In this document: piece after piece, positions 34,455 to 52,973 of the stretch | Numbering within the stretch: the first letter of the stretch is position 1 | How the letters are laid out: each line of letters begins with the position of its first letter | From: Dehalococcoidia bacterium | GTDB taxonomy: Bacteria; Chloroflexota; Dehalococcoidia; Lucifugimonadales; JAGWBF01 | Length of the DNA stretch: 64,000 nucleotides | Assembly (NCBI GenBank): GCA_965220375.1 | Contig: OZ244824.1 | Coordinates: forward strand, 2,125,133-2,189,132 | Direction: 5' to 3' | Translations under genes and position numbers: made by a program | Notes under the pieces: generated by a model | Database searches by the model: none | What the model saw: the letters and a program-made list of their open reading frames with translations, nothing else | What the model was told of the DNA's origin: nothing

Positions 34455-34467
34455 TGCTATCTAGCGT

Positions 34468-37017: not shown

Positions 37018-37224
37018 CAATCGTACACCGATGATTAGAGGGATTAAGCCCGTGGGCTTGCCATTTGGCTTGAAATCTCCTTTCGGAGAGGCATCCTAGT
37101 GAAAAAGCTGAATCCTCAAGGGCGGGTATCACCTCTGTGATGGATGTGGAATCGCCGGTAGTGAGGTCCCAGAACCCCGGTAGCCTGATTAGCACGGGAT
37201 GCCAGCGGTTTCATGGTTTACTAG

Positions 37225-37949: not shown

Positions 37950-38327
37950 ATGCCTTTGCAGCTAGACCACACAATCGTGCCCGCTTATGACAAGGTGAAG
38001 TCTGCGGAATTCATTGCCCGCATGTTCGGGCTGAAGTATGAGGCCCCTTGGGGGCACTTCGCGCCAGTCAAGGTCAACGACATATTGACCCTGGACTTCG
38101 ATGACTCGGATAATCCTCGCTCCAATCACTACGCTTTTCTGGCTTCGGACGAGGAATTCGATGCAATCCTCCAGCGGATCAACAGCGAGGGAGTCGCCTT
38201 CGGCAGCGGGCCGCGCTCGCGGACGGACGGGGAGATCAACCACAAGCACCAGGGGCGTGGGTTCTATTTCGAGTGTGAGAACGGCCACGTCTGGGAGGTT
38301 ATCACTCACAGGTACGTCACCGATTGA
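37950..38327 (+). CDS. VOC/glyoxalase-fold family protein
   Basis: 125-aa core 'LDHTIVPAYDKVKSAEFIARMFGL...HYAFLASDEEFDAILQRI' with GGAGGGGAA ahead of the ATG at 37950. The 396-aa ORF from 37137 is a high-GC artefact. Confidence 0.65.
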   Translation: MPLQLDHTIVPAYDKVKSAEFIARMFGLKYEAPWGHFAPVKVNDILTLDFDDSDNPRSNHYAFLASDEEFDAILQRINSEGVAFGSGPRSRTDGEINHKHQGRGFYFECENGHVWEVITHRYVTD

Positions 38328-38615
38328 CCCTCGTTGGGGGAATGACCACATCGCTTCAAGTAACGACGTGACGGTAGAGTTACTGGGCGTGATCAGCAAC
38401 CTCCACGACTGGAGGAAGCTGTCAGAGCATTTCGGAGTCGTTGAGGAGCTGTCTTCCGGACGCTCCCCGTAGGGCCTAGCAGCTGGCACCGTGTGACCCG
38501 GCTGCAATTTCCATCCCACCTTATACTGCCAATTGCACCCCACACTTAAGTCTGCTCTTGACATGCGTTAGTTTATAATAGAAACTAGTTTATATAACTA
38601 TTTGGAGGAATCGGC

Positions 38616-39251
38616 ATGAGGGAGCAAGAGAGCGAAGGACAACAGATCACTCCGGACCAAGGATGGAGGTCAATACATGCAACCCTGGACAGGTCCCATA
38701 GTGCCATGTACGTGGCGGGCTGGCCCAACATCATGCTTTTGTGGGGCGCCATCGTCGCTGTGGGATACTTTTCCATGTACGCCATTGAAACACTGGCGCC
38801 AGTGTTTGCAGACGACTATCCATGGTACCCCGGTCTCCTGTGGTCCGGCCTCGGAATCTCAGGCATGATCGGGAGCTCGATCATTGGCCACCGGGCCAGC
38901 AAGCAGAATGCAAGCGGGCCCGCCGCCACAGCGGCGGGCCTCCGGGTCTTCGCATTCTGGATGACCGTGGTCGCGGCCGGCTTCATCATTCCTTGGGCGT
39001 CAGGTCTGTGGACCGCCGACTCCGACCCCGTCGCTATCAGGGGGGTTGCTATCGGCATAGTTGCGCTGGGGTACATCTTGTTCGGCATCATGCATCACTT
39101 CGCAATTGCCCTGGTAGGTCTTGGCATCGCCGCTGCCTACTACCTGCCCGAGCACTTTGCCGGCGACGTCGCGCCCGTGGTATCGGCGGTGCTCATGCTT
39201 GCCATCGTAGCTGTCGCATGGGTATGGATTCGCAAGAGCCGTGTGGCATGA
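38616..39251 (+). CDS. hypothetical integral membrane protein
   Basis: 211 aa with 5-6 hydrophobic helices. It is translationally coupled (ATGA) to the downstream regulator. Confidence 0.6.
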   Translation: MREQESEGQQITPDQGWRSIHATLDRSHSAMYVAGWPNIMLLWGAIVAVGYFSMYAIETLAPVFADDYPWYPGLLWSGLGISGMIGSSIIGHRASKQNASGPAATAAGLRVFAFWMTVVAAGFIIPWASGLWTADSDPVAIRGVAIGIVALGYILFGIMHHFAIALVGLGIAAAYYLPEHFAGDVAPVVSAVLMLAIVAVAWVWIRKSRVA

Positions 39252-39559
39252 GTGAGGTTCCGGTCGTTCTGAATGAGACGATCCATCAGTCCACACGGCT
39301 GCGTATCATGACGCTGTTGGTGTCCCAGTCCGACTCGGACCGGGTGGCCTATGGCTTCATCCAACAGACGTTGGGCCTGACAGGCGGCAACCTCACCATC
39401 CACCTGCGCAAGCTGGAGGATGCCGGATACGTCAACACCACCAAGGAATTCCTTGATTCAAAGCCACGGACATGGGTGGAGGCGACGGCCGTCGGCCGCC
39501 GAGCCTTCACCGAGTACCTCGGCGACTTGGAACGCGCCATCAATATGCCCCTGCGATAG
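39248..39559 (+). CDS. winged-helix transcriptional regulator
   Basis: 103 aa. 'IHQSTRLRIMTLL...YGFIQQTLGLTGGNLTIHLRKLEDAGYV' is the wHTH pattern of small ArsR/MarR-like regulators. Confidence 0.65.
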   Translation: MSEVPVVLNETIHQSTRLRIMTLLVSQSDSDRVAYGFIQQTLGLTGGNLTIHLRKLEDAGYVNTTKEFLDSKPRTWVEATAVGRRAFTEYLGDLERAINMPLR

Positions 39560-39589
39560 GAGGTCATACCACCAGGCTTCGGGCTGCCG

Positions 39590-39723
39590 GCATCGTCGCT
39601 CAGCTTGCGGCCTAGTCTCTTCACATAGGTGCGCACCGGGCGCGGGACGCCGGAGTTGTCCTGGCCCCAGGCTCTCTTTTGGCAGATGCTTGTGGACAGC
39701 CGCCGTCCCTTGAGCGCCGGCAA
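39590..39723 (-). pseudogene. relic of an OmpR-type response-regulator C-terminus (part of direct-repeat copy Y, 39590..39770)
   Basis: The minus-strand reading '...AWGQDNSGVPRPVRTYVKRLGRKLSDDAGSPKP' resembles the winged-helix 'vWG...r.v.v.i.rLRrKL.dd' consensus. There is no receiver domain and no start. Confidence 0.45.
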
Positions 39724-39737
39724 GTCCTAGACTCTTT

Positions 39738-40418
39738 CTATTGCCACAGGTCGGGATCGGGTCGGTTCATGAGTCCGTAGCCCAGATATCCATACCAGAT
39801 AACCAGCAGCACGTAAAAGCTTCGGGCCAGGGTGATAAATGTGTCGCGCCCGTCGTTGTAGAGTATGGCTATCATGAAGAAGGCCATTACGGCCAGGCTG
39901 ATAAGGGCAGCCAACAGGGAGATTATCCGGTTGAAGTCGTCTCTCGTGGAGAGGCCCAACGCGAAAATGAAGCCGCCGAACCCAAGGGCAATTCCACCCG
40001 CGTAGACGAGAGCGGAGCCGGCATAGTAGACGGGAACGCTTCCCACGATCTGGTCACTGGTCTGAGCATCGGCCAGAATGAAGTCCATGCCCCCGGATAG
40101 AATCCAGCCGGTCAGCCCCACGAAGATCATGAAAAAGCCCATCTGAACAAACGCCTTGCCGTTGCCCTGCAAGGTTACGTTCCGCATCAGCGCATAGAGG
40201 CCCGAGAGGATTAGGGCCAAGCCAAGGATTATCCCGATGTTGGTTACATTGGTCAGCGCGGCGTTGCCACCCTTGGCCGTTATGGAGCCAACAGCGTCCG
40301 ACACTTCGGCGCTGTCTATCAGTAGTCCGCCCGGCTCTACGAGAAAGAAGACGAAGGCGATTATCGGGCCGAATATGAGGGACAGCCCCGCCAGCCGGTT
40401 CACTGATATTGTGCCCAT
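39738..40418 (-). CDS. hypothetical integral membrane protein (paralogue family with 42313..43029)
   Basis: 226 aa from the ATG at 40418, preceded by GAAGGGGG, with 6-7 helices. The ORF extension to 40853 is non-hydrophobic, Arg/Ser/Pro-rich and judged spurious. Confidence 0.6.
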   Translation of the reverse strand: MGTISVNRLAGLSLIFGPIIAFVFFLVEPGGLLIDSAEVSDAVGSITAKGGNAALTNVTNIGIILGLALILSGLYALMRNVTLQGNGKAFVQMGFFMIFVGLTGWILSGGMDFILADAQTSDQIVGSVPVYYAGSALVYAGGIALGFGGFIFALGLSTRDDFNRIISLLAALISLAVMAFFMIAILYNDGRDTFITLARSFYVLLVIWYGYLGYGLMNRPDPDLWQ

Positions 40419-41079
40419 GTTCAAACCCCCTTCACGTGATGTCGTGAGAAGGATCCATTGGGTTCGATCCCTTCCTGGGTACATCCTGCCCCCAGAGCTG
40501 TGTAATTTCAATAGGAAAGTTGCCTGCCCCCGATAGTTGGACCGCCCGCTATCTGATTTTCGTGGGGCGTCCGTGCCCACAAACGAGTCCATCAAGCATC
40601 GCGACGGTTTGGCAGTACAGAGGCCAGGGAACATGGAACCTGGAGAGGCGCGAGATACCGTATGACGCCAGGTGGAAGATTCCGGTCTGGAATAGTCCGC
40701 TCCAGTCTGAGCTGGACAGCCTGGGCCATGCCTGTGATTGCTGGGGCGCCTTTGGCCGGGTTGTTCGACTAGTTCCCGGATTGGACAGAGTCCTGGAGGC
40801 GTCCTGGGAGAGATTGTGCTGCCGGCGCTGTCCGAGGTGCTCCGAATGCCCACTCAGCAACGCCTTCGCCTCCTCTGCCGTGCTCTCCTTGCCCTGGCAG
40901 AGACGCAGTGTCGATAATTGGAGTTGGTCTGCTCCCTTGCGTCCGATGCTGGAGCACCAGGGCATTTCTCTAGTGTGGGTATCCCCAGGCTGCGGGCATC
41001 CGCATGTTCATGGGGAGGGACTGCATGGGGACATATCTCCTAGACTTGTTGTGATTCTCGATGACTGTAAAAACTTGGT

Positions 41080-42162
41080 GTGCGAGAACTTTGTCATGCA
41101 TCGGATTTTCAGGCATTGGGCATCATAGTTGATGAGGTCGCTCTTGTAGAGCGGCACACCCCACTCATGGTGCTGTATCCCGAGATCCCGCCGGGCAGCT
41201 TGAGGAGAGTCAGTGAGAGTTACCCCCATGAATCGCCCCTTGCATACGACTATCACCCGAGGGACATTCGCCTGGTACTTGCCAATGTGGGCTTTTACAG
41301 CCGTTTCAGGCCATGGAAGGATAAGCCCCAGGACTGGGACGGTATGTTGGGCAGGATGGAGAGGGCCCGCTACGAGAGAGACCTGGACGTGGCGCCCCAT
41401 TTGAAGCTGGATGACAGAGAGGGGTTCTGGGACGCTTACGCTGCTATTCCGAAAAACAGGGATGAATTCCAAAGGTGCTGCTATGCCCGTGTGGTGACGG
41501 GAAAGGGCATCCACCACGACCGGGTCTTGGTGCAGTACTGGTATCCCTATTTCTACAACGACTTCTGGAACACCCACGAAATGGACTGGGAAGTCATAAT
41601 GATGGTAGTCAGAGTCGTCGATGGGGATGCCAGGCCGGTCGCATGCGCCTACTCGGCCCACGGCGGAGGGCATTGGCTCAAATGGGCCGATGTGGAGAAG
41701 GCCGATGATAGCGAGCAGCTGTGTCCGAGGGGGACTCATCCCGTTGCGTATGTGGCGAATGGTTCCCACGCTAACTACTTCTACGGCTCGAGTCTATACG
41801 TTACCGCCCCGCCTATTGTCAGAATGGCGGCCAAGCTTCGCAAGAAGCCCAGGAGTTTGATAGATTACACAACCTCCCTCGAAGAGGGAGAGCGCCACCT
41901 TGTGAATCCGAAGCTAGTCCCCCACGCCGAAGGAGGTGTGTGGACGGGCGAGTGGCGCTGGCTGAACCAGAAAAGCCTGTGGGGTTCACCGGGCAAATTC
42001 TTCGACCTTGAGTTCGGAGACTCTGGACCGCAGGGGCCTCCTCAGGGAGGCGACAGGTGGGACTTTCCATTTCGTTGGATTGACACCGCCTGCGCGCTGG
42101 CGCCGTCGAGGATGGAGTGTCGAGCTCCGACCCTCCTCTCTTCAGACGACATTCCAGCATGA
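41080..42162 (+). CDS. hypothetical protein, Vps62/DUF946-like
   Basis: 'VLVQYWYPYFYNDFWNTHEMDWEVIMMVV...AYSAHGGGHW...ANGSHANYF' resembles the Vps62-family core. The start is uncertain. Confidence 0.45.
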   Translation: MRELCHASDFQALGIIVDEVALVERHTPLMVLYPEIPPGSLRRVSESYPHESPLAYDYHPRDIRLVLANVGFYSRFRPWKDKPQDWDGMLGRMERARYERDLDVAPHLKLDDREGFWDAYAAIPKNRDEFQRCCYARVVTGKGIHHDRVLVQYWYPYFYNDFWNTHEMDWEVIMMVVRVVDGDARPVACAYSAHGGGHWLKWADVEKADDSEQLCPRGTHPVAYVANGSHANYFYGSSLYVTAPPIVRMAAKLRKKPRSLIDYTTSLEEGERHLVNPKLVPHAEGGVWTGEWRWLNQKSLWGSPGKFFDLEFGDSGPQGPPQGGDRWDFPFRWIDTACALAPSRMECRAPTLLSSDDIPA

Positions 42163-42312
42163 CGCCCTCCCTCGCTCCCTGTCTGCGGGCTTGGTTCGAA
42201 GGTCTTCGTGCAGCTCGTTGCCAATACTATTCCGCACTCGCAGGGTCCTGTTCTTGCGAATCCACAGGCCGTTGGGCTACCATCTCCAGAATCTGCATGT
42301 CAGGGGAATGAA

Positions 42313-43029
42313 ATGGCGTTAGGCTCGGCGGCTGGCTGGGCGCTAATCCTTGCTGTGATCATTGGTTGGGTTGCGTCGTTGCTAACCCCGGGTGGGTTGC
42401 TGATCGATCCTGTAGATTCCGCCAGCTTCCGGGAGGCGGCGGGCGTCCTGGGGGACAACGCTTCATTAGCCCAAGTGTTGACCTTGCTCTTCGTTATTAG
42501 CGTGGTGCTCTATTGGTTCGGATTGCACACCTTGCACCGGGCATTCAGCAGCAGCTCGGTCATGGATCGCGGATCTCGCTTTGCCCTGAATATCTTTCTG
42601 GTCGGGTACGCCTTTCTCATCGTCGAGTTGAGCGTCCGGCACATTCTGACCCATGTGCTGGCCCACGGCGTTGGAGGCACCGACGCGGAACACCAGGGTA
42701 TGGCGACCACCCTCTTTATGGCCGCTGCAGGTATTCACATTGCCTTCCTGTACGTAACATCCATCGGCTCTACCATATTTGGGTTAGCCTTGGCATGCCG
42801 GTGTGAGGGTATGAGCATCTTCAAGCTTGGGGTGTTGGGACTGGGGCTCACAGGCCTGCTGAGCTTCGTCGTGCTGATGACTGCGGAACACGTAACGGCC
42901 ATAGACCTGCATGGGGTTGCCGTAGCTAGCAATGGTGTGCTGTTCCTCGGGTCCCTCTGCATTGCGGTCATCGGTGTGGGCATCATGCAGGGACGCCAGG
43001 AATTCGTGGGAGAGGAAGCGGCGGCATAG
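42313..43029 (+). CDS. hypothetical integral membrane protein (paralogue family with 39738..40418)
   Basis: 238 aa from the ATG at 42313. It shares the N-terminal 'PGGLLID....S' and 'G.NA.L' motifs with the 39738..40418 product. Confidence 0.55.
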   Translation: MALGSAAGWALILAVIIGWVASLLTPGGLLIDPVDSASFREAAGVLGDNASLAQVLTLLFVISVVLYWFGLHTLHRAFSSSSVMDRGSRFALNIFLVGYAFLIVELSVRHILTHVLAHGVGGTDAEHQGMATTLFMAAAGIHIAFLYVTSIGSTIFGLALACRCEGMSIFKLGVLGLGLTGLLSFVVLMTAEHVTAIDLHGVAVASNGVLFLGSLCIAVIGVGIMQGRQEFVGEEAAA

Positions 43030-43145
43030 GCAGCGTCTCGGAGACGAACTTGGCTGCCCAGGCTGGTGTCGCCTTGCTGATGCTGTGTGTTATTCGATCA
43101 GGAGCGAAGGCTGTCTGAAGGCTGCCCCAATAACTGGTTGGAGGA

Positions 43146-43919
43146 GTGAAAGTGCCGGGGCATCGATCTGACCCGAAGGAGGATCCATCGGTGACTCTGG
43201 GGCAGAGCGTCCGCGTTGGCGACACCATCATCGATTATCGAGTCCGCCGCAGCGGGCGGCGCAAGAAGACGGTGCAGATAACCGTTGATGGCAGTGGCGT
43301 GAGGGTTGCCGCTCCGATGGCGACGCCCGACGGACAGCTGAGGGACATCGTCCGAAAGCGGGCGCCCTGGATACTGCGCCACACCTCAAAGGCGACGCTC
43401 GAGGCCCCTCCCCAAAGGGTCGCAAACGGGGAGACGCTGCCTTATCTCGGCCGTAACCTCCGCCTAATCATCGAAGCTGGCGATGCGGCTTGCGCTATCG
43501 TCCGATTTGACCACTGGAGCTTCAGGGTCCAAGTGCCAAACGCTTTGGAAGATAGTGAACGCTGCCGGTCCGTTCGCGAGGCTCTTGTGCGGTGGTACAG
43601 GGACCGGGCCGCCGAGCGGATGGAGTCCATGGTGGAAGTGTGGTGGCCGCGGCTCGGCAGGGAAGGGAGGCCGAGGGTCCTTATCCGCGACCAGCTCCGG
43701 CGCTGGGGGAGCTGCGCACCCGACGGGACGCTCCGCTTCAACTGGAGGCTCATCATGCTGAAGCCGGAACTCATGGAATACGTGGTTGTACATGAGCTGG
43801 CCCACCTCACCCATCCCAACCACTCGAAGCATTTCTGGGCCTTGGTATCCGAGGTGTTGTCCGATGCCCCGCAGCGCCGCTTACGCCTCCGGGAGGAAGG
43901 GCATGCACTTCCTTTGTGA
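43146..43919 (+). CDS. M48-family/DUF45 (YgjP-like) metal-dependent hydrolase
   Basis: 'VVHELAHLTHPNHSKHFW' zinc motif at the C-terminus, in the DUF45 layout. The start is uncertain. Confidence 0.75.
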   Translation: MKVPGHRSDPKEDPSVTLGQSVRVGDTIIDYRVRRSGRRKKTVQITVDGSGVRVAAPMATPDGQLRDIVRKRAPWILRHTSKATLEAPPQRVANGETLPYLGRNLRLIIEAGDAACAIVRFDHWSFRVQVPNALEDSERCRSVREALVRWYRDRAAERMESMVEVWWPRLGREGRPRVLIRDQLRRWGSCAPDGTLRFNWRLIMLKPELMEYVVVHELAHLTHPNHSKHFWALVSEVLSDAPQRRLRLREEGHALPL

Positions 43920-44003
43920 ACCTCGCCTGACCACTGCCTTGAGGGAAGGGAGCAGAAACATACTTCCCCGCTCCCTCAAGGAGACCTTTGCGTAACCTGG
44001 GGC

Positions 44004-44054
44004 CTGGGTTGTCCGTTCGCCCTGAGGGAAATCGAAGGGTGAACGGACAGCGTG
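44004..44054. repeat. hairpin intergenic repeat, copy 3
   Basis: gttgtccgttcgccctgagggaaatcgaagggtgaacggacagc belongs to the same family as 9346..9394. The flanking 'gtaacct' and 'aatcct' are also shared. Confidence 0.75.
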
Positions 44055-44108
44055 TCCAATCCTAATCCTCTTCCTAAAGGGTGAGCGTCCCATCGGTGAG
44101 ACCCGCGG

Positions 44109-44894
44109 CTAGAAGGTGTCAGAGCCTTCGCCGACCCACTTGCGGAGCAAATCGTTCAGCGTGCCGTCCGCCTTCATTGACGCGATGGCTTCGTTGAACC
44201 TCTCCCGGAGAGGGCTGTCCTCCCGTATCCCGATGCCGAACCCCTGGTCAAGGGGCACTCCGGGACCGACGATGGCGACCCGGCCCTCATGCTCCGCTAG
44301 CTTCTCAAGGGCGTATGGCCGGTCCACGAGGATAGCATCGATTTCGCCGGACAATAGGGCATCAAGGGAGCCTTCCGGGTCCTCGAAGCCCACGTACTGC
44401 CTGTCCGTTGCCTGGAAATAGTTGGAATGGATGGTCTCCTCCATGGCTCCTAGCGTGCCCTGGATGGCATCGTCGCCTTCGCCGGCGCGGGCAATATAGA
44501 CGGAAGGCGTCGGCGGATAATAGGGCTCGGTGAAGTCGATGAGCTCGTCCCGCGCCGAGGTGATGGACATGCCCGCCATGATGGCGTCGAACTGATCGGT
44601 GCGCAGGTCAGGAATCATGTCCTCCCATGCGTTGATGGTCCATTTGCACTCGAGCCCGGCCCTGCGGCAGAGCTCGTCTCCCAGCTCTCGCTCCAAGCCG
44701 TCGATTTCTCCTGTGTCCTCGTTGACAAAGTTGAAAGGATGGTACTCGCCGTCGGTGGCGATCAAGACCTTGTCCGACTTGCAGGCGATGGCAAGGACGG
44801 CAAGAGCCATCACCGCTGCCATCAGAAAGAGAATACGCAGAAACTTGGGCAACCCCGGCTTGAAAGCCCTCAAGGTCTTCGTCTTTTTTAGCAT
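44109..44894 (-). CDS. ABC-transporter substrate-binding protein (amino-acid-binding, family 3)
   Basis: Signal/lipobox 'LAIAC' and a PBP type 2 pattern ('YHPFNFV', 'FDAIMAGMSIT..R'). The start is set at the second ATG after GGAGG; the ORF extends to 44927. Confidence 0.8.
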   Translation of the reverse strand: MLKKTKTLRAFKPGLPKFLRILFLMAAVMALAVLAIACKSDKVLIATDGEYHPFNFVNEDTGEIDGLERELGDELCRRAGLECKWTINAWEDMIPDLRTDQFDAIMAGMSITSARDELIDFTEPYYPPTPSVYIARAGEGDDAIQGTLGAMEETIHSNYFQATDRQYVGFEDPEGSLDALLSGEIDAILVDRPYALEKLAEHEGRVAIVGPGVPLDQGFGIGIREDSPLRERFNEAIASMKADGTLNDLLRKWVGEGSDTF

Positions 44895-44990
44895 CATGAC
44901 CTCCGAACAGAGTATAATATAGGCCATTGAGTGGCTGATTACCTAGAGGAACGCAACGCAAAGAGGAGATATTCGGGGTTTACGGTGGGA

Positions 44991-45899
44991 ATGAGACGAA
45001 TTATGACGGTGCTGGCGGCGGCGATGTTGCTGTTGTGGGCGGCGGCATGCGGCGGTCAGCCTGCGGCCACTACCCCGACGGAGTCCGGGACCGATGTGTC
45101 CATAGCCCCGGCTTCTACACCTACTGCTGGTGCGACCGATACGCCTATGACAGAAGGGGAGGACCCGACGGCCCCGCCGAAAGCGACTTCTACTTCAATG
45201 CCGGAGACTCCTCCAACAGAAGCTACCGACTCTGGGCAAACGACCGCATCGAATGTTGATAACGTGGCGACGCCAACAGCAAGTGTTGGGGAAGCCGTAC
45301 CACCGGGGCCTACTACGGGACCAACCGGGAGCCCCGCAAGCACAGAGGGGCCTACTTCGACCGTCCCTCTAATGGAAGAGGCCGCTACCCCCACACCGGC
45401 TCCCCTTCCCACCAGTACGCCGACGGCCGTCCCCACCGAGGAGCCCACCCCTGACATCCCGGTCGGTTCCAATGTGGGCAACCGGGCGCCCGAGTTCTCC
45501 CTGACCCTCAACGGGGGACAGGTGGTGTCCTCCGAGGACCTGCGGACTCAGGGCAGACCGGTCCTGCTCTTTTTCCACTCTACTACTTGACCGACCTGCC
45601 GCGCCGAGTTACGGCGCATCACCCAGGTTTACCCAGCCTTTCAAGAGTCAGTGGACTTCTACGTTGTCGGCACCTTCCAGGGCTTGGACAAGCTGACCAG
45701 CAACCAGAACCAGGAAGCCTACCCCGGACAGGTGGCCGAGCCGTCGAGGAGCATGCTTGAGGACTTCAGGGTGCTCAAACAATCGACGAAGGTCGGCATC
45801 GATGAGAGTTGGGCCATAGTGTACCGAGCCGGCTTCGGTGATGTCGGTGCAGATGGCTGGCAGGGGGTCTTCGAAGACTTGGCCTCCGGCGCCTCTTAG
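44991..45899 (+). CDS. TlpA/redoxin-like thiol-disulfide oxidoreductase lipoprotein with a U-x-x-C active site (in-frame UGA at 45588..45590 read as Sec)
   Basis: ORFs 44931..45590 and 45651..45899 share a frame. Read-through gives 'GNRAPEFSL...GRPVLLFFHSTT-U-PTC-RAELRRI...', with the TGA exactly where thioredoxin-fold proteins carry the first Cys of CxxC. The lipobox is 'LWAAAC'. Confidence 0.65.
45601..45617 (+). promoter_or_regulatory. candidate bacterial SECIS stem-loop
   Basis: GCGCCG-AGUUA-CGGCGC, a 6-bp GC stem, begins 13 nt after the U of the UGA. Confidence 0.4.
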
Positions 45900-45927
45900 T
45901 TAGCCAAGCTCGCCCGTTTTCGGAAGA

Positions 45928-47328
45928 TTAGGGCCAGGCAGCCACGTTATGTCCCAGGGGCACGGCTGGTCGCGCCCAGCGAGGCGGCGTCTCCGACAGC
46001 TTCAGCACCGGCGCCAAATGCCTTAAGCGGCCCGTAGGCGTTTCGCTGACCATTGTCCAACCATCCACCTCCTCGGGAGAGAACTCTTCCGGCACACCGG
46101 CCAGCTCACTTTGGGGCACTTGGCCGCGTTCCAGAAGCCAGCGTCCCGTCTGGGCCAGGGATGCCCGGACCAGCCAGCTTCCTCCCTCCCGTGCCCGTCG
46201 AGCGAGGGCGATCATGGTGCCGAAGGCCATCAGGTATCCCGTCAGGTAGTCGATGGCCGATACGGGATAGAACTGGGGTCCCGCCTCACCCCCTGGGAAG
46301 AGTTCCCCCTGCCGGCTGGCTATGCCGCTGACGGCTTGCACCACGGTGTCGAATCCCCTCCGGGATGCCCAGGGACCCTCGTGCCCGAATGCGGAAAGGG
46401 AAATGTAGATGATTCCCGGGCGCAGCTCAGCCAGCTCATGGGGAGACAGCCCCCGTCCAGCTAAAGTTCCGGGTCGGTAGCTCTGGGAGAACACATCGCA
46501 ATTCTTCACCAGTCCCCTCAGCGTGTCCAGGTCCTGCTCCCCACGCAGGTCCAGGTAGGCCGATAATTTGCCATGCCCGGTATCGAACTCCTGGTAGCCT
46601 ATGTTCGGCAGGTGGGAGGCGGTGATCTTGAGAACATCGGCGCCATGCTCGGCCAGCGTGCGCGCGCATGTAGGCCCGGCCAGCACCCGGGTCAGGTCCA
46701 ATGCCCTGATCCCCGACAGGGGACGGTCTCCCTCGGGCAACGACTCAGCCGGGCTGTCGCCGATCCTGACTATCTCCAACAGGGGCAGGGAAGCGACAGC
46801 GGCAGCTTGGGGATGCTGCGCCCACTCATCCATGGTGCGGACCATGCCACCAGCCCCATTGGCGGCGATGATGGCCTCCTCCAGCTCCAGGGCATTCCAT
46901 CCTGCTACCGCTGAGGCCACAGCCTCCCGGTCTTCGGGCACGCCCAGAACGCTGAGGGCGGCTGCCCGGTGATTGGGGAAGTTGCAGTGCAGATAGCTCC
47001 ACCGCCCGTTTTTTGCCGGGTAGAAGCCCATGATGGGATTCCGGCCCGTGGAGACGGGGGCGTCCTCCATCTTCATGTAAGTCCCGCTCCGCAGGGAAGC
47101 CGTCGCTTGGCGGGTGTCCACGGTAATTTCCTGGCGGCGTCCCGTGCGAATCTCCCATATATCTGATACGGCGAGGCCGACGGCGGCCAGAGCGGCAGAT
47201 GAGGCTTCGCCTATGCGAAAGGGGGTGGGCAGAATGGGGTCGGCTGGGCCGGTGATCTGGACTTCCCTCAGACGGGACTCTCCTCCGGGCACTAAGGGCA
47301 GCAGGGTGTTAACGGCATCGTGGTCCAT
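45928..47328 (-). CDS. CoA transferase, family III (CaiB/BaiF)
   Basis: 'IRALDLTRVLAGPTCARTLAEHGADVLKI' is the signature. The start is set at the ATG at 47328, downstream of GGGAGGGGG; the ORF extends to 47379. Confidence 0.85.
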   Translation of the reverse strand: MDHDAVNTLLPLVPGGESRLREVQITGPADPILPTPFRIGEASSAALAAVGLAVSDIWEIRTGRRQEITVDTRQATASLRSGTYMKMEDAPVSTGRNPIMGFYPAKNGRWSYLHCNFPNHRAAALSVLGVPEDREAVASAVAGWNALELEEAIIAANGAGGMVRTMDEWAQHPQAAAVASLPLLEIVRIGDSPAESLPEGDRPLSGIRALDLTRVLAGPTCARTLAEHGADVLKITASHLPNIGYQEFDTGHGKLSAYLDLRGEQDLDTLRGLVKNCDVFSQSYRPGTLAGRGLSPHELAELRPGIIYISLSAFGHEGPWASRRGFDTVVQAVSGIASRQGELFPGGEAGPQFYPVSAIDYLTGYLMAFGTMIALARRAREGGSWLVRASLAQTGRWLLERGQVPQSELAGVPEEFSPEEVDGWTMVSETPTGRLRHLAPVLKLSETPPRWARPAVPLGHNVAAWP

Positions 47329-47432
47329 GATTGATGTCCCCCTCCCATTAAGTGGGTCGTTGCCTGGGCATTGGTGCAATTATAACCAAAATGGGCGCCT
47401 GATTTGTGATAACCTACTGACATTGGGGGACG

Positions 47433-48179
47433 ATGAACCTGGGCAAACCGATAAAGGCAGCCGATGGCGTGTTCCAGATTCGAGTCTTGGGCGCCAGGGT
47501 GACCGTCCTGGTGGAAAAGGGCGAAGCCATTCTGGTCGATGCCGGTCTGTGGGGAAGCCAGGGCTTGATTGCGGATGGGCTGAAGAGCCTGGGGATATCC
47601 CGCGAGAGCCTGAGGATGGTAATCATCACCCACGCTCACCCGGACCATTCGGGCGGGTTGAGGGGGCTGGTCGAAGGAACGGGGGTCCCGGTGGGTGTGC
47701 ACAAGCTCGAGGCCGACATCGTAGAAGGCCGGGCGCCTCCTCCCAGCCCTCTGCGAAATCCCCGCTTGGCGAAGCTCACCCAGCCTGTATTCTCGAAACT
47801 GATGGGAGGTCCCGTTTCGGTCAACGATCGCCTTGAGGATGGTGATGTCATCCCCTTTGGGACAGAGGTGCAGGTGGTGCATCTGCCCGGACATACCGTG
47901 GGGAGCATCGGCCTTCACCTGCCCCGTAAGAGGACGACTATCGTGGGAGATGCCCTCCAGTACAAGCTCGCCCGCAGCCTCAGCCCCCCGGCGGCAGGGG
48001 TCACCCAGGATGCAAGAGAGGCGATAGCCTCCCTTGAAAAGCTCCTGGACATGGACCTCGATACTATATGTTTCAGCCACTTTCCTCCCATGAGGCACAA
48101 CGCATGTGAAGCCTTGGGGATGCTGCTTCGAGGGCATGCGTCCGCCGGACGTCCGGCAGCAAGGGGCAAGCCTGCATGA
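47433..48179 (+). CDS. MBL-fold metallo-hydrolase
   Basis: 'ITHAHPDHSGG' motif. 248 aa. Confidence 0.85.
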   Translation: MNLGKPIKAADGVFQIRVLGARVTVLVEKGEAILVDAGLWGSQGLIADGLKSLGISRESLRMVIITHAHPDHSGGLRGLVEGTGVPVGVHKLEADIVEGRAPPPSPLRNPRLAKLTQPVFSKLMGGPVSVNDRLEDGDVIPFGTEVQVVHLPGHTVGSIGLHLPRKRTTIVGDALQYKLARSLSPPAAGVTQDAREAIASLEKLLDMDLDTICFSHFPPMRHNACEALGMLLRGHASAGRPAARGKPA

Positions 48180-50683
48180 AAGAGACCCTTGTGGCCGGTC
48201 CGCCTGTTTGTAACACCATCCCGGAATTCTTGAGAATGGCCGTCGAGAAGCACGGTCGCCGGGATGCTCTGCTGTTCAAACCCGCCTTCCGCTATAGGAG
48301 GTGGAGCTATTCCCAGCTGGGGGCGCAGTCGGGCCAGGTTTCCACCTTCCTTCAGCAGAGAGGACTCAAGAAGGGCGACCAGGTGGTCTTGTGGGGTCCC
48401 AACTGTCCCCAGTGGGTGCTGGCCTTTCTCGGCTGCATCAAGGCCGGGGTCGTCGTAATCCCCCTGGACCTGCGCAGCGCTCCCGACTACGTGTCAAGGG
48501 TCATATCCCGCATCGAACCGAAGCTGGCCTTTACGTCACGGCTCACTCCCAAGGATGGGGTGGAGCTGGGGGTACCCGAGATTGGCTTCGAGGACCTGGA
48601 AGCCTCCATACAGGGCCTGCCCCAGCCGGAAGATGTGGACATATCGCCCGACGACCTGGCTGAGATCATGTTCACCTCAGGCACCACAGGTGACCCGAAG
48701 GGCGTCATGCTCACCCACCGGAACCTGCTGGCCAATGTGGAAGGGGTGTGCCAGTACATCTCCTGCAAGCCTTCCAGCCGCCTGCTGTCCATCCTTCCCC
48801 TCAGCCATATGTACGAGCAGATGGGAGGCCTGTTCATAGCCCTGCACTCCGGCGCCAGCGTGACTTACCCCACCAGCCGCCAGCCGACCGTACTGGCCCG
48901 CACCATGCGTGAGCGAAGGGTCACCATACTGCTCCTTGTTCCCCAGGCGTTGGAGCTGTTGATGAACGGGGTTGAGCGGGAGGTGAAGAGGCAAGGTAAG
49001 GAGGCCCTCTGGAACAAGCTCTTGAGAGTCGCCGAATCATTGCCCTTGCCCATGAGACGACTCCTGTTTCGCCGAGTGCACAAGCAGTTTGGCGGCAAGC
49101 TGGATTTCATCGTTTCGGGAGGCGCAGCCCTCGACCCGGACCTGGGGCGCAAATGGGAGGCGCTGGGCATCAAGATCGTCCAGGGTTACGGCACAACCGA
49201 GGCATCCCCGGTCATCAGCAATCACAGCCTGAGGGAGCGGCGCCTCGACTCTGCGGGGCGCCCCCTTCCCAACGTGGAGCTGAAGATCAGCGATGAAGGT
49301 GAAATCCTGGTCAGAGGGGAGAACATCACGCCGGGCTACTGGCGGGCGCCCCAAGAAACCGAGGCGGCCTTCGACGGCGAGTGGTACAAGACGGGTGACC
49401 TGGGGTTCCTGGATGGGGAGGGCTTCCTGCACATCCAGGGGCGCAAGAAGGACATGATCGTGCTCTCCAGCGGCCAGAATATCTTCCCGGAGGATATCCA
49501 GGGAGTGCTGGCCAAGCATCCGAAGGTCGCCGACTCCGCGGTGGTCGGGTTGGACAAGGGGTCGTCGGTGGAGGTCCACGCCGCCCTTATCCTGGAGGAT
49601 GCAGACGCGGCCCAGGAGGTTGTTTCCTGGGCCAATGGGCAACTGGCTGAGCAGCAGAGGATCAGGGGCTTCACCATCTGGCCGGAGGAGGACTTCCCCC
49701 GTACCCACACCCTGAAGGTGAAGAAGGGTGTAGTGCTGGACACGATTCTCGGAAAGATTCAGCCGGAAGCTCCGGCGGAGCAGCCTTCGGGGAACCGCGC
49801 CGGAGGCCAGAGCAGAAGCTTGGTCGATATCATCGCCGAGGTGAGCAAGCGGGAGGCCGGGGCGGTGCGCGATCTTTCCACATTGGGCGGTGACCTGGAG
49901 CTGGACTCCCTGGGGCGCGTTGAGCTGCTGTCCGCTATAGAAGCGGAGCTGGGCGTCTATTTGGATGAGGGCATGCTGGGGCCCGACATGACTGTGGGAG
50001 CGCTGACATCCCTGGTAGAAGAAGGGTCGAAGAACCCGCCCATGATGAGTTTCCCCAGCTGGGGTATGCGATGGTGGTGCCGCATGTTGAGGGGTTTCCT
50101 CCAGCGCGCCGTCGTATTCCCGGTGGTCAGCCTTCCCTATTCGTTGAAAGTGTTGGGCCGTGAGAACCTGGAGGGCATCACCGGGCCTGTGCTGTTTGCC
50201 TCCAACCACCACCTGGGCCTAGATAACCCGTTAATCATCAAGGCTGTCCCCTTGAAGTGGCGCCGGCGGATGGCAGTGGCCGGCGCTGCCGACCTTTGGA
50301 AGAACCCGGTCTGGTGGATAGTGAATCCCCTTCTGGGCAATGCCTTTCCCCTTGCCAGGGAGGGATCTGTGAAGCCCAGCCTCGAGAACATGGGCAGGAT
50401 CATGGACAACGGATGGTCGGTGCTGATTTACCCTGAGGGTGAGCTTACCCTGGGAGGCCCCATCAAGCCATTCATGAACGGGACTGGCCTGGTGGCAGTG
50501 GAGGGAGGAATCCCCGTGGTGCCCCTCCGTCTGCACATTCACAGGCTGGGCAGCCCCGTTCGCTTCCCAGTTCTGCGCCGTGGCAAAGTGGAGGTGCGAC
50601 TGGGAGAGCCGCTTACCTTCCCGGCGGGTACGGACTACCAGGAAGCAACCTCAGCCATCGAACAGGCCGTCAGGTCACTATAG
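48176..50683 (+). CDS. tri-domain fusion: acyl-AMP ligase (AMP-binding) - carrier protein - PlsC-type acyltransferase
   Basis: 'MFTSGTTGDPKGVMLTHRN' and 'GWYKTGDLG' mark adenylation. 'LGGDLELDSLGRVELLSAIE' is the phosphopantetheine site. 'FASNHHLGLDNP' and 'IYPEGELT' are the NHx4D and PEG acyltransferase motifs. Confidence 0.85.
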   Translation: MKETLVAGPPVCNTIPEFLRMAVEKHGRRDALLFKPAFRYRRWSYSQLGAQSGQVSTFLQQRGLKKGDQVVLWGPNCPQWVLAFLGCIKAGVVVIPLDLRSAPDYVSRVISRIEPKLAFTSRLTPKDGVELGVPEIGFEDLEASIQGLPQPEDVDISPDDLAEIMFTSGTTGDPKGVMLTHRNLLANVEGVCQYISCKPSSRLLSILPLSHMYEQMGGLFIALHSGASVTYPTSRQPTVLARTMRERRVTILLLVPQALELLMNGVEREVKRQGKEALWNKLLRVAESLPLPMRRLLFRRVHKQFGGKLDFIVSGGAALDPDLGRKWEALGIKIVQGYGTTEASPVISNHSLRERRLDSAGRPLPNVELKISDEGEILVRGENITPGYWRAPQETEAAFDGEWYKTGDLGFLDGEGFLHIQGRKKDMIVLSSGQNIFPEDIQGVLAKHPKVADSAVVGLDKGSSVEVHAALILEDADAAQEVVSWANGQLAEQQRIRGFTIWPEEDFPRTHTLKVKKGVVLDTILGKIQPEAPAEQPSGNRAGGQSRSLVDIIAEVSKREAGAVRDLSTLGGDLELDSLGRVELLSAIEAELGVYLDEGMLGPDMTVGALTSLVEEGSKNPPMMSFPSWGMRWWCRMLRGFLQRAVVFPVVSLPYSLKVLGRENLEGITGPVLFASNHHLGLDNPLIIKAVPLKWRRRMAVAGAADLWKNPVWWIVNPLLGNAFPLAREGSVKPSLENMGRIMDNGWSVLIYPEGELTLGGPIKPFMNGTGLVAVEGGIPVVPLRLHIHRLGSPVRFPVLRRGKVEVRLGEPLTFPAGTDYQEATSAIEQAVRSL

Positions 50684-50717
50684 AGTCTGCTGGGATCGTG
50701 TCCTCAGGCTGCGGGAG

Positions 50718-51800
50718 CTAGAAGACGACGACGGACCGCAGCACCTCACCCCTCTGCATCTTGCCGAATGCATCCTCCACCCCGTCAAGGGGAATCGTCT
50801 CCGAGACGAAACCGTCCAAATCCAGGCGGCCCTGGAGGTATAGGTCTATAAGCTCAGGGAAGTCCCTGGTGGGCAGGCAGTCGCCGTACCAGGAGGACTT
50901 CAGCGCGCCGCCCCGGCCAAACACCTCCAGCAGGGGCAGCTCTATCTTCATTTCAGGGTTCGGCACTCCCACCAGTACGACGGTGCCGGCGTGGTCCCGA
51001 GCATAAAAGGCCTGCCGGTAAGTTTCGGGTATGCCAACGGCATCAATGCACACGTTGGCCCCGTTGCCCCCAGTCAGCTCCTTGATGGCTTCCACCGGAT
51101 CGTTGGCGGAAGCATCGATGGCGTGGGTTGCCCCGAAGGCCCTGGCTTGGGGAAGCTTCCTGCTATCTATGTCCACGCCGATGATGGTGTGGGCCCCTGC
51201 CAGCTTAGCCCCTGCAATGGCGGCATCTCCCACGCCCCCGCAGCCGAAGACGGCTACCGAGTCGCCGCGGCCCACGTTACCTGTGTTCAGCGCTGCCCCC
51301 AAGCCCGCCATGATTCCGCATCCCACCAGGCCGGCGGCCTCGGGCCGGGCGCGAGGGTCCACCTTGATCGCTTGGTCGGCGTGCACCAGGGACAGCTCGG
51401 CAAAAGCCCCGATCCCCAGGGCGTTGGTGAGAGATGTCCCGTCGGTCAGCGTCATGGGCTGGCTGGCGTATTGGCTGGCGAAGCAGTACCAGGGCCTGCC
51501 TCGGAGGCATGACCGGCAGGTGCCGCAGGGCGCGCGCCAAGCCAGGATAACGTAGTCCCCTACAGCAACGTTCTCCACGCCGGACCCCACTTTTTCCACG
51601 ACTCCGGCCGCTTCGTGGCCCAGGAGAATGGGGTAGTCATTGGTGATGGCGCCCTCCCGGTAGTGGAGGTCCGTGTGGCAGACTCCGCAGGCCTGCACCT
51701 GCACCCGCGCCTCCCCCGGGCCCGGATCGGGCACCATGATGGTCTCAACGCTTACGGTCGCGCCCTTGGACCTGGAAACAACACCTTTGACCTGCTCCAT
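50718..51800 (-). CDS. zinc-dependent alcohol dehydrogenase, class III-like
   Basis: '[10 protein letters not shown]' and '[10 protein letters not shown]' Rossmann motif. 360 aa. Confidence 0.85.
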
Positions 51801-51825
51801 TTACACTCCCGGATGATGTCCCGTT

Positions 51826-52899
51826 CTAGGCGGGTATAAGGTATTTGTAGTGGTCGCCCTTTGATATGGCCGGCAGCCCGGATGCTGCGCAATACCAGTT
51901 GTCGCCCCCGTCGTCGCTGCACCAGACCTCCCCGGCGGCGGTGGCGCTGAACAGGGAGAAACCATCTCCCCAATCTTCCAGGCTCATAGCCTCGAAGGCG
52001 GACTGCATATCGTCGGGCACTCCCGCCGTTACCGTGCTCCAGGTGCGCCCGCCATCGGCGCTGCGGGATATCTTGGAACCGGCGTAGTGAGTCGCCCTCC
52101 AGCCACCCGGGTTCTCCTGGGACGCTCCCACGAACATGGTCTCGGGCTGGCGAGGGTGCATCACCAGCACATCGGGATATCCCCCGATGGGGTCTTGCCG
52201 GGTGCTCCAATGCTCCCAGGAGTCTCCGCCGTCGGAGGTAACGTAAATCCCGTCCCCGCCGGTGACGTAGATGCGGTCAGGGTCGTCGGGATTTATGAGG
52301 GTGCGGTGCACATCGTCGTCCATGCCCCGCATGACGTCGAAGCTCTCGCCGAAGTTCGTGCTCTTGAGCAGGCCCCCCTGCTCGATGCTGACGAACATGG
52401 TCTTCGGGTCGTCGGGATGGAAGTTGATGTGCTTGGTGTGGGCTATGTGGGGAGGCGCCGGGAAGCACCAGCCTGACATATCCACCGAGCGCATCGCAGG
52501 CAGCTCATTCCAGGTCAAGCCCAGGTCGTCGCTGCAGAACAGGTGGGCCGGTTCGGTCCCGGCGAAGATGCGCACCCCGCCGTCATGCCGGGAGAAGGAG
52601 AGGCTGTAGATGTCGTCCTGGGTCAGGCCCCGCTCTCGAAGCTCCCAGGTGTACCCTCCGTCAAGGCTGGCATGGACGGAACCCTTTGTCGCCCCCGCAA
52701 ATATGATGCCGGAGGCGGGTTCGACCATCAGGGCGTGGATGTGCTTGTGGAGCAGTCCCCGGTGGGCTGTCCGCCAAGGGCCTCCCGCCTGGTCTCGCTC
52801 CAGTATGACCACGCCTTCGATGGTGCCAACCAGCACCTGGCTGGAGGGGGATGGCGAGGAGTAGATGGTTGGTCCGCCGTGGGAAAGGGCGATAGTCAT
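51826..52899 (-). CDS. BNR/Asp-box repeat beta-propeller protein
   Basis: Six SxDxGxTW-like boxes: 'SLDGGYTWE', 'SDDLGLTWN', 'STNFGESFD', 'TSDGGDSWE', 'SADGGRTWS' and 'SDDGGDNW'. Confidence 0.75.
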   Translation of the reverse strand: MTIALSHGGPTIYSSPSPSSQVLVGTIEGVVILERDQAGGPWRTAHRGLLHKHIHALMVEPASGIIFAGATKGSVHASLDGGYTWELRERGLTQDDIYSLSFSRHDGGVRIFAGTEPAHLFCSDDLGLTWNELPAMRSVDMSGWCFPAPPHIAHTKHINFHPDDPKTMFVSIEQGGLLKSTNFGESFDVMRGMDDDVHRTLINPDDPDRIYVTGGDGIYVTSDGGDSWEHWSTRQDPIGGYPDVLVMHPRQPETMFVGASQENPGGWRATHYAGSKISRSADGGRTWSTVTAGVPDDMQSAFEAMSLEDWGDGFSLFSATAAGEVWCSDDGGDNWYCAASGLPAISKGDHYKYLIPA

Positions 52900-52973
52900 G
52901 CTATCCTCCTGTCGTTATCTCTCATGCAACTCACCCCGCCGGTGGGGTTGGATGGGACGGCTGCTCCGGCGGG

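Follow-up and report, generated by a model that had tools for sequence, protein, structure and literature searches.

The locus at 44991..45899 of the window, by which we mean the whole 64-kb stretch of DNA analysed (60% G+C), holds a single gene and not two. The first-pass annotation had described two ORFs, 44931..45590 and 45651..45899, that share one frame with a TGA as their only break, and translation bore this out: the sole interruption of the frame is the TGA at codon 200. Around this codon, the translation reads ...FFHSTT-(stop)-PTCRAELRRITQVY..., which matches the peptide quoted in that annotation exactly. Gene callers split the gene at codon 200 and call all of its orthologues as two pieces, and public annotation carries the gene and every orthologue as two unnamed fragments without Pfam domains. 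Two in-frame ORFs on either side of a single TGA are uninformative alone; a lax scan of the window returned 108 such junctions. When the junctions were ranked by codon-usage score on both sides, the site at 45588-45590 came first and the UGA of a gene of the UGSC family came third; the second-ranked junction consists of two neighbouring genes that share a frame by chance. Scanning for promoters and terminators around the gene yielded nothing beyond shuffle expectation, and a terminator-like site at 45549-45566 was rejected, as it lies inside coding sequence and is within chance prediction. The coordinates of all features are collected in Table 1.

Table 1. Features of the proposed selenoprotein gene and of the second candidate in the window.
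Feature	Position	Strand	Basis
Complete CDS of the proposed selenoprotein (302 codons and TAG stop)	44991..45899	+	single frame, one TGA
Predicted signal peptide and lipobox, MRRIMTVLAAAMLLLWAAA-C	44991..45050	+	read by eye from translation
Putative lipidated Cys, codon 20, TGC	45048-45050	+	read by eye
Pro/Thr/Ala-rich low-complexity linker from lipid anchor to domain, ~137 residues	45051..45461	+	translation
TlpA/ResA-like thioredoxin-fold domain, residues 158-302	45462..45896	+	Pfam match, profile versus PDB, Cys-form model
UGA, probably read as selenocysteine U200, first position of U-P-T-C	45588..45590	+	orthologue TGA, Cys-form TGT/TGC
SECIS-like element	45594..45628	+	RNAalifold consensus, covariation, published bSECIS criteria
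Lower helix of the element	45594-45598 pairs with 45624-45628	+	RNAalifold consensus
Apical stem GCGCCG/CGGCGC with loop AGUUA	45601-45606/45612-45617, loop 45607-45611	+	
Cys203 (TGC), resolving cysteine of UxxC	45597..45599	+	column invariant in all family alignments
Ser265 (TCG) of invariant Q-S-T-K, cis-proline position	45783..45785	+	profile alignments to 2m72 and 4nmu
UGSC family selenoprotein gene	10431..10973	-	PF24696, NF041046

The predicted protein begins with a basic and hydrophobic segment ending in A-A-A-C that, judged by eye only, is conserved across the family. Homologues with selenocysteine (Sec forms) and with cysteine (Cys forms) at the active site both retain the Cys that follows the hydrophobic stretch and is preceded by small residues at -1 and -2. 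Comparable linkers, differing in length, are present in orthologues. With the Sec residue written as Cys, the joined protein matched Pfam AhpC-TSA (45 bits against a gathering cutoff of 26; 1.3e-11) and Redoxin (34.6 bits against a gathering cutoff of 26.6; 1.9e-8), and both matches span the UGA. A profile of the family searched against the PDB retrieved 2m72 (2.6e-17), ResA (8e-13), and CcmG (7e-12). The AlphaFold model of a Cys-form homologue, P0011 (45% identical), had a pLDDT >94 in the domain and superposed on ResA with a TM score of 0.81-0.90 and an rmsd of 1.6-2.0 Å. Its top PDB matches were all ResA/TlpA-like, and it contains the N-terminal hairpin and the central insertion of the TlpA type. 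The segment downstream of the UGA, whose alignment to the thioredoxin fold had been named as a check on the original proposal, forms the C-terminal half that completes the ResA-like fold. Each part of the first-pass reading that was open to checking was upheld, but its description of the layout as canonical TlpA/redoxin is slightly too strong, since the canonical cis-proline is absent.

The protein belongs with the TlpA/ResA/CcmG-like thiol-disulfide oxidoreductases (CDD cd02966) and not with the peroxiredoxins. Inspection of the alignments did not find the combination of a PxxxT/SxxC motif and a catalytic Arg expected of AhpC/Prx/BCP proteins; the family motif is F-[FWH]-[AS]-T-[WTH]-[C/U]-x-x-C, which is TlpA-like (FWATWC). 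In both the structural and the profile comparisons, peroxiredoxins ranked far below ResA/TlpA-like entries. Weak Pfam matches to peroxiredoxin and to Sco1/SenC families were rejected because these comparisons favour ResA/TlpA. Pfam and NCBIfam matches to iodothyronine-deiodinase-like families were weak, below cutoffs, and confined to the N-terminal half. The NCBIfam equivalogs for ResA, DsbE, and MauD scored 27-28 bits against cutoffs of 170-359; the protein is therefore a TlpA-like paralogue and not an orthologue of ResA, DsbE (CcmG), or MauD.

In alignment with E. coli CcmG/DsbE, the UGA falls on the first Cys of WCPTCRAE, and U-P-T-C as a whole aligns with C-P-T-C of CcmG and with the CxxC of ResA. 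Together with the Cys that occupies this column in full-length homologues, this places the UGA at the first Cys of CxxC, as had been proposed. The position of the cis-proline is different. This residue is nearly universal among thioredoxin-fold oxidoreductases, and [IV]P[TH] fills the corresponding column in canonical TlpA relatives. In profile alignments, Ser265 stands opposite the Pro of PG_2175 (2m72) and of ResA (4nmu), and the Ser is invariant in both Sec and Cys forms of the subfamily. Without the cis-proline, the family may follow a chemistry other than that of ResA and TlpA.

We then examined homologues of the gene. A TGA occupies the same codon in 8-9 Dehalococcoidia orthologues, which come from different samples and different assemblers, have conserved gene order, and keep an intact frame downstream. 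More distant Sec forms with TGA at this position are L019 (46% identity), L060, and three sites in L064. Cys-form homologues (P0011-P0016 and L020/L061/L062/L063) have TGT or TGC aligned to the UGA, and relatives from Acidiferrobacterales and Isosphaeraceae also carry Cys there. Full-length Cys forms without interruption were found at 45-52% identity; one of them, P0011, carries the record name [quoted passage not shown]. In a neighbour-joining tree, the Sec form L060 fell among Cys forms, with support of 36% or less. Purifying selection acts on the segment downstream of the UGA: dN/dS was 0.08-0.20 in all 21 of 21 pairwise comparisons, at dS values of 0.37-1.1. Orthologues that end at the UGA had been named as an outcome that would speak against recoding, and instead this segment is conserved in frame. 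As a separate observation, four Sec codons lie within 2.8 kb at L064.

A GC-rich stem-loop, GCGCCG-AGUUA-CGGCGC, had been reported 13 nt after the UGA, and this distance is correct when counted from the U; 10 nt separate the A of the UGA from the 6-bp stem. When the window sequence was folded singly, the hairpin only mildly exceeded shuffled sequences (z = -1.70; 12 of 200 shuffles folded as well), and its significance therefore comes from comparative data rather than from one sequence. Across the 13 Sec sites, the hairpin paired in 72 of 72 cells and none of 500 shuffles was as good, whereas slid controls paired in just 19-56% of cells. Compensatory changes were present at three of the six stem pairs, giving four stem variants (GCGCCG, GCGUUG, GCGCUG, and GCUCCG), and some of these changes also alter amino acids (A/V, R/Q). 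The loop GUU is invariant at Sec sites and is encoded through the rare Leu codons UUA and UUG, which account for 14.5% of the Leu codons across 29 window genes; at the same Leu position, Cys forms have CUC/CUG or AUG. Synonymous variation was absent from the 10 codons right after the UGA (0 of 10, against 53 of 90 elsewhere; p=3e-4).

Published criteria for bacterial SECIS elements (bSECIS) call for a loop of 3-9 nt, a stem of 4-16 bp, an MFE of <= -7.5, and G in the first two loop positions with a UGA-loop spacing of 16-37 nt (PMC13188914). By measured values, the hairpin fits all four constraints: the loop has 5 nt and the stem 6 bp, G at loop position 2 is followed by U, the MFE at Sec sites is -10.3 to -16.7 kcal/mol, and the spacing of 16 nt is the lower limit of the published range. 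At Rfam gathering thresholds, no SECIS-type family was matched, and the window scan returned only a T-box and tRNA. The expectation that no Cys form would have a hairpin proved only partly true. The stem is broken in three of four Cys forms, and L061/P0013 retains a perfect stem, but with GC in the loop instead of GU. Since this Cys form keeps the stem, part of it could be a by-product of the G+C-rich codons for R-A-E-L-R-R.

A second selenoprotein gene had been claimed elsewhere in the window, in the UGSC family. It matched Pfam PF24696 (1.4e-54) over positions 1-171 of 172, and it scored 140.1 bits against a cutoff of 125 with NCBIfam NF041046, "UGSC family (seleno)protein"; the claim is thus upheld by a full-length match above both curated cutoffs. 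The gene reads ...ATGD-U-GSCSSC, with the UGA at the U of U-G-S-C, and has its own hairpin 12 nt after the UGA. A search of the 64-kb window and of the flanks fetched for the relatives' loci found no selA, selB, selD, or tRNA-Sec gene. Support for Sec machinery in the genome is indirect and comes from the window's two selenoprotein genes and from the published count of 46-49 selenoprotein genes in Dehalococcoidia genomes (PMC13326102). A literature search linking SAR202 with selenoproteins returned no report.

Collectively, our results make it very probable that 44991..45899 is a single gene for a lipid-anchored, TlpA/ResA-like selenoprotein whose UGA is decoded as Sec with the downstream hairpin acting as the SECIS. 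In the product, a signal peptide with lipobox would be followed by a long tether rich in Pro and Thr and then by a TlpA/ResA-like domain with U-P-T-C at its active site. During translation, the hairpin would recruit SelB with Sec-tRNASec to the ribosome, so that release factor 2 does not read the UGA at 45588-45590 and Sec is inserted instead. The protein would then be exported, and its lipid would anchor it to the cytoplasmic membrane on the outer side. In this position it could act as a thiol-disulfide reductase, with Sec200 as the nucleophile that attacks the substrate and forms a selenenylsulfide with it, which Cys203 would resolve; the reaction would presumably run in the reducing direction. 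None of the genes around the locus points to a substrate or an electron donor.

An alternative is that the TGA arose from a Cys codon, TGC or TGT, that mutated in a pseudogene or was misread in sequencing or assembly. Assembly errors or damage do occur in this gene family, as the L006 orthologue (low coverage, 2x) has a frameshift near its 3' end and L019 has a hard stop inside the linker. However, the same TGA stands at 13 sites from independent samples and assemblers, the frame beyond it is intact with dN/dS of the low values given above at dS up to ~1.1, and the RNA hairpin covaries. Nor can the TGAs be copies of one contaminating sequence, given amino-acid divergence of 21-55%. Conservation and selection effectively refute this reading, and we consider its probability negligible. 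The UGA could otherwise be a true stop, giving a 199-residue lipoprotein with half a fold and a separately initiated C-terminal peptide, or mostly the truncated form. Gene callers annotate two ORFs in every relative, and some truncated product is likely, because Sec insertion in bacteria is generally inefficient. Yet protein-level conservation extends over the 20 codons that separate the UGA from the first possible restart (PTCR.EL.RI..VYP), and these codons include the invariant resolving Cys. The restart codons chosen by gene callers vary among orthologues, and each Cys form is one continuous protein. A lone half of the thioredoxin fold would also be unstable; the structural model requires both halves. 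We therefore regard termination at this codon as the main outcome as highly improbable.

It is likewise very unlikely that the UGA is recoded to an amino acid other than Sec, either to Cys through a Sec-like tRNA and SelB or through lineage-wide reassignment to Trp or Gly. Cys at Sec sites has been proposed for some bacteria, and TGA is rare as a stop in the window, ending 3 of 29 genes against 20 for TAG. But TGA does terminate genes there, for example in the ATGA stop/start overlap at 48176-48179, and about 40 genes with full-length Pfam matches have no internal TGA; the genetic code is therefore not reassigned. Only two in-frame UGAs have coding signal on both sides. Both lie at redox-active Cys/Sec positions of known selenoprotein families and both are followed by a hairpin, whereas a general reassignment of UGA would need no SECIS.

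Beyond the preferred reading of a single Sec-containing lipoprotein, a further possibility, tentative and in our estimate rather unlikely, is that the gene belongs to a distinct and not separately described subfamily of TlpA-like surface lipoproteins in Dehalococcoidia/SAR202. In such a subfamily, the cis-proline may always be replaced by Ser or Thr ([ST]-[ST]-K), and Sec and Cys may have been exchanged several times. The SECIS may be built into the C-R-x-E-L-x-R codons, with retention of the stem forcing amino-acid changes, and the stem in one Cys form may either be left over from a former Sec site or predate the acquisition of Sec. Some members may be tandem multi-Sec proteins clustered with UGSC genes (L064). 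If this were true, loss of the cis-proline could mean chemistry other than disulfide reduction, such as metal or metalloid binding, and the family could represent an extracytoplasmic, selenium-based redox module in Dehalococcoidia/SAR202.

The split annotation means that a redox enzyme is missed and that selenium use is undercounted in Dehalococcoidia/SAR202, an abundant environmental group. Moreover, RNA signal and protein sequence constrain each other here within the same 17 nucleotides, which makes the locus a clean natural illustration of such mutual constraint. What is known of selenocysteine decoding is unchanged by this gene, and the UxxC thioredoxin-fold kind of selenoprotein is already well known.

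As in the E. coli fdhF-type SECIS and the bSECISearch consensus, the hairpin lies in the coding sequence just past the UGA and has a small apical loop with G then U, at least 4 bp of stem, and a UGA-loop distance of 16 nt. It differs in being a short, perfect 6-bp stem with the loop NGUUR and without a bulged U. At the protein level, Etrx1 and Etrx2 of Streptococcus pneumoniae (PDB 4hqs, 2yp6, 4hqz) are surface-exposed lipoproteins with a TlpA-like thioredoxin domain outside the cytoplasmic membrane, as is predicted for the protein described here, and the P0011 model matched their structures with E ~2e-9 and TM scores of 0.77-0.80. The Etrx proteins, however, have Cys and cis-Pro, a partner, MsrAB2, and an electron donor, CcdA, neither of which has an identifiable counterpart for the gene described here. 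ResA of Bacillus subtilis, CcmG/DsbE of E. coli, and TlpA, which are extracytoplasmic CxxC thiol-disulfide reductases, share the fold and would share the membrane anchor and the extracytoplasmic location, and the active-site context WCPTCRAE of CcmG corresponds to TT-U-PTCRAE here. In contrast to these proteins, ours would have Sec in place of the nucleophilic Cys and has the invariant Ser in place of cis-Pro, and its gene does not adjoin cytochrome c maturation genes.

The closest precedent is the group of UxxC thioredoxin-fold selenoproteins catalogued since 2004-2008 (Table 1 of PMC13188914; PMC2398784), among which an ocean survey listed Prx-like 1/3 and Trx-like 1 (PMC2398784). Like them, the protein has a PF00578/PF08534 thioredoxin-fold domain, a probable Sec at the first position of UxxC, Cys homologues, and a SECIS-like hairpin just past the UGA, and it comes from marine or environmental bacteria whose genomes also encode UGSC selenoproteins. 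Compared by description only, it differs from the catalogue entries in its predicted lipobox, its long Pro/Thr tether, and its Ser at the cis-proline position, and it would thus add a predicted exported, lipid-anchored member to the UxxC selenoproteins.

The gene at 44991..45899 (plus strand) reads as a single frame, 302 codons long with a TAG stop, and its sole interruption is the TGA at 45588-45590 (codon 200). The first-pass annotation had described an in-frame ORF pair joined across one TGA and had read a peptide through it; the frame confirms the pair, and the translation, ...GRPVLLFFHSTT-U-PTCRAELRRITQVY..., matches that peptide exactly. Because such pairs are common in a window of 60% G+C, where a lax scan returned 108 in-frame ORF-pair junctions across TGA, the pair is uninformative alone, and the significance of the observation rests on the position of the TGA. 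When all in-frame TGA junctions on both strands of the window were ranked by codon usage on both sides, the U200 junction came first. The second-ranked junction is just two adjacent genes sharing a frame, and the third is the UGSC site discussed below.

The joined protein (U entered as C) was aligned to family models, as the first pass had suggested, and exceeded the gathering scores of Pfam AhpC-TSA (45 bits, residues 162-265, across the UGA) and Redoxin (34.6 bits). Its best sequence match among solved structures is E. coli CcmG/DsbE. Since WCPTCRAE of CcmG aligns with TT-U-PTCRAE, the UGA occupies the first, nucleophilic CxxC position, where the first-pass annotation had placed it. No Pfam family was matched by the C-terminal piece on its own, so we tested the fold through homologues. 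The family profile (positions 14-148) matched full-length TlpA-like structures (2m72, 2.6e-17; ResA, 8e-13; CcmG, 7e-12). The AlphaFold model of P0011, a Cys-form homologue (domain pLDDT above 94), superposed on ResA with a TM score of 0.81-0.90 and an rmsd of 1.6-2.0 Å over ~140 columns, and its other matches include CcmG and Etrx1/2, the lipoprotein thioredoxins of pneumococcus. The downstream segment thus aligns to the C-terminal half of the thioredoxin fold, and one ResA/TlpA-like domain requires both halves. The NCBIfam equivalogs ResA, DsbE and MauD scored 27-28 bits against cutoffs of 170-359, which rules out these named enzymes and leaves a TlpA-like paralogue.

By eye, the N-terminus, MRRIMTVLAAAMLLLWAAA-C, resembles a lipoprotein signal peptide; the Cys equivalent to the lipobox Cys is conserved family-wide and is followed by a Pro/Thr/Ala-rich linker of ~137 residues. 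At the near-universal cis-proline position, Sec and Cys forms of the subfamily alike carry an invariant Ser265 (Q-S-T-K, window 45783-45785); the motif is x-P-T-x in TlpA, ResA and CcmG, whereas it is Q-S-[TS]-K in our family alignments A3 and A5. As this Ser replaces the cis-proline opposite the active site, the active-site environment of the subfamily may differ from that of ResA/TlpA.

The ten homologues of the joined domain in the database are all partial and lack Pfam annotation: N-terminal fragments terminate at ...FFHSV[HT], and C-terminal fragments span 84-98 residues. Homologue contigs and a genome scan revealed a shared gene order in Dehalococcoidia MAGs: YgjP-like, SBP_bac_3 (opposite strand), the studied gene, CoA-transferase (opposite strand) and metallo-beta-lactamase. 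One otherwise syntenic locus (L001) holds an IS21-type element (IstB ATPase and rve transposase, 3738..5755) that the window lacks. TGA occurs at the identical codon in 8 distinct orthologues, in the more distant L019 (46% identity, HATW-U-SVC) and L060 (FATW-U-GVC), and at three additional TlpA-type sites in L064. The L020/L021 protein (45% identity) is encoded by one continuous ORF with WATW-C-STC and is named by NCBI 'TlpA family protein disulfide reductase [SAR202 cluster bacterium]'; remote relatives in Acidiferrobacterales have FFHSTT-C-P[FY]C. TGA in some homologues and Cys in others make up the classic Sec/Cys pairing. In a neighbor-joining tree, the window clade grouped with L019 (78% support), and L060 fell beside L061 among the Cys forms with weak support.

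An interrupted frame of this kind could also reflect a pseudogene or an unrelated downstream ORF. Orthologues retain the downstream segment, and over 102-104 codons 3' of the UGA dN/dS was 0.08-0.20 in all pairwise comparisons (dS 0.15-1.1). These codons are therefore translated in this frame, which excludes both alternatives. Two homologues show separate disruptions. In L019, a hard stop (1051-1053) parts a signal-peptide ORF (820..1053) from the rest of the gene (1054 onward) in the same frame within the Pro/Thr-rich linker, which points either to misassembly of low-complexity sequence or to a damaged gene. In L006, an orthologue whose long-read contig has 2x coverage, the frame shifts close to the 3' end (about 3200..3331), most likely through a sequencing error.

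The GC-rich stem-loop noticed at first pass, GCGCCG/AGUUA/CGGCGC, lies at 45601-45617, 10 nt past the UGA, and is surrounded by a lower helix (45594-45598 with 45624-45628). Alone, the window hairpin stood out only modestly from shuffles (z = -1.7). Among six complete close orthologues, synonymous variation was found at 0 of 10 codons after the UGA versus 53 of 90 amino-acid-invariant codons elsewhere in the domain (Fisher p = 3e-4). Thirteen Sec sites aligned gap-free, and the 6-bp stem was paired in 72/72 cells. Four stem variants occur (GCGCCG/CGGCGC, GCGUUG/CAACGC, GCGCUG/CAGCGC and GCUCCG/CGGAGC), with compensatory double changes at three of the six pairs. No shuffle of 500 equalled the observed pairing or covariation score, and sliding the 3' arm as a control reduced pairing to 19-56%. 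Several of the stem changes are non-synonymous (A/V and R/Q), so RNA constraint overrides amino-acid identity at those positions. All Sec sites carry loop G-U-U, drawn from UUA/UUG, which are rare here (14.5% of all Leu codons across 29 window genes); the four Cys forms examined have CUC, CUG or AUG at the loop codon, and three have a broken stem. The fourth, L061 (encoding P0013), retains all six stem pairs (GCGCCG-AGCUG-CGGCGC) downstream of the TGC of CVTC, with loop GC rather than GU. The stem may therefore come partly free from R-A-E-L-R-R coding, a coding hairpin having predated the SECIS, or L061 may be a recent Sec-to-Cys conversion. The published bacterial SECIS model specifies a loop of 3-9 nt, a stem of 4-16 bp, a G within the first two loop nucleotides, with G or U next in most cases, a UGA-to-loop distance of 16-37 nt and an MFE <= -7.5 kcal/mol (PMC13188914). 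The post-UGA hairpin fits this model in all four published constraints, with a distance of 16 nt and an MFE of -10 to -17 kcal/mol.

Searches for the Sec machinery found no tRNA-Sec in the 64-kb window, no SelA, SelB or SelD among ~40 window ORFs, and none of the machinery in the relatives' flanks examined. Sec decoding by this organism nevertheless has good indirect support. The second gene proposed as recoded at first pass, 10431..10973 (minus strand), matches Pfam PF24696 from end to end (1.4e-54) and also NCBIfam NF041046, 'UGSC family (seleno)protein', above cutoff. Its one in-frame TGA (10674-10676) falls at the U of U-G-S-C and is followed after 12 nt by a 7-bp hairpin, UCGUGCA-GUG-UGCACGA, with loop GUG. 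UGA is not read as sense in general; under the standard code the other window genes have intact frames, and TGA terminates three genes, among them one at the ATGA overlap 48176-48179. Two Dehalococcoidia genomes, with 49 and 46 selenoprotein genes, rank among the top ten bacteria by this count (PMC13326102, a 2026 database paper). Among 29 Pfam-supported genes across 1..64000, stops were TAG in 20, TAA in 6 and TGA in 3, an unusually low share of TGA for a G+C-rich genome (~60%).

An exhaustive search with a Cys-form query returned 31,227 representatives at E <= 1e-3 and 12 at E <= 1e-30. Among the best 150 of the 31,227, a rough regular expression counted ~69 whose cis-Pro motif is replaced by one of the [ST][ST]K type, and at least 12 are fragments whose break coincides exactly with the U position: eight consist of the C-terminal half, and four stop just before U. 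L064 (ERZ23495173 scaffold_5137), the single locus inspected among these fragments, has a cluster of selenoprotein genes at 1994..4754. The first encodes a lipoprotein whose two TlpA-like domains stand in tandem and each contain U-P-[TA]-C (TGA at 2471 and 3218), and it is followed directly by a single-domain Sec gene (TGA at 3784). Alongside, on the opposite strand, is a split UGSC gene, giving four Sec codons in ~2.8 kb. All three TlpA-type sites have the hairpin GCUCCG-NGUUG-CGGAGC.

Elsewhere in the window, two regions of reduced G+C, 12001..14000 (0.49) and 60290..63135 (about 0.55-0.60), hold defense-type genes and are probably acquired islands.

Other annotated features of the window
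Feature	Coordinates	Strand	Remarks
AIPR protein	12117..13937	minus	Defense-type; low-G+C region 12001..14000
T-box leader	15406..15645	+	Rfam RF00230, 96 bits; 5' of TPP-enzyme gene
TPP-enzyme gene, acetolactate-synthase-like	15685..17406		3' of T-box leader
HMGL-like/LeuA gene	19148..20752		Branched-chain amino-acid gene; after TPP-enzyme gene
Aconitase-family gene	20798..22258		Branched-chain amino-acid gene; after TPP-enzyme gene
McrC-like gene	60290..61489		McrBC pair; defense-type, region 60290..63135
AAA_5 ATPase gene	61492..63135		McrBC pair; defense-type, region 60290..63135

In the mechanism we propose, SelB and Sec-tRNASec would bind the hairpin as the ribosome arrives at the UGA, and Sec200 would be inserted; UGA recoding at U200 is well supported. 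The protein would be exported, lipidated at Cys20 and held by a flexible tether outside the membrane, where the U-P-T-C center would reduce or exchange disulfides, with Sec attacking and Cys203 resolving the selenenylsulfide. We infer export, reaction direction, substrate and electron donor by analogy with ResA, TlpA and Etrx; this subfamily departs from the analogy in carrying Ser265 at the place of the near-universal cis-proline. The gene neighborhood in the window and at the relatives' loci offered no clue to substrate or electron donor.

Both the observation and the interpretation of the first-pass annotation were correct: this is a genuine selenoprotein gene split by annotation pipelines. 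The result is a useful annotation correction and is biologically ordinary for a selenoprotein-rich lineage. Thioredoxin-fold UxxC selenoproteins have long been established, and this gene works like them. In an ocean survey, UxxC selenoproteins of the Prx-like and Trx-like kinds numbered in the hundreds (PMC2398784), and a review table lists a 'Prx-like thiol:disulfide oxidoreductase' (PF00578, UxxC), a 'Redoxin family protein' (PF08534, UxxC) and a 'UGSC-containing protein' (PMC13188914). Compared by description only, the gene at 44991..45899 almost certainly falls within one of the catalogued UxxC groupings.
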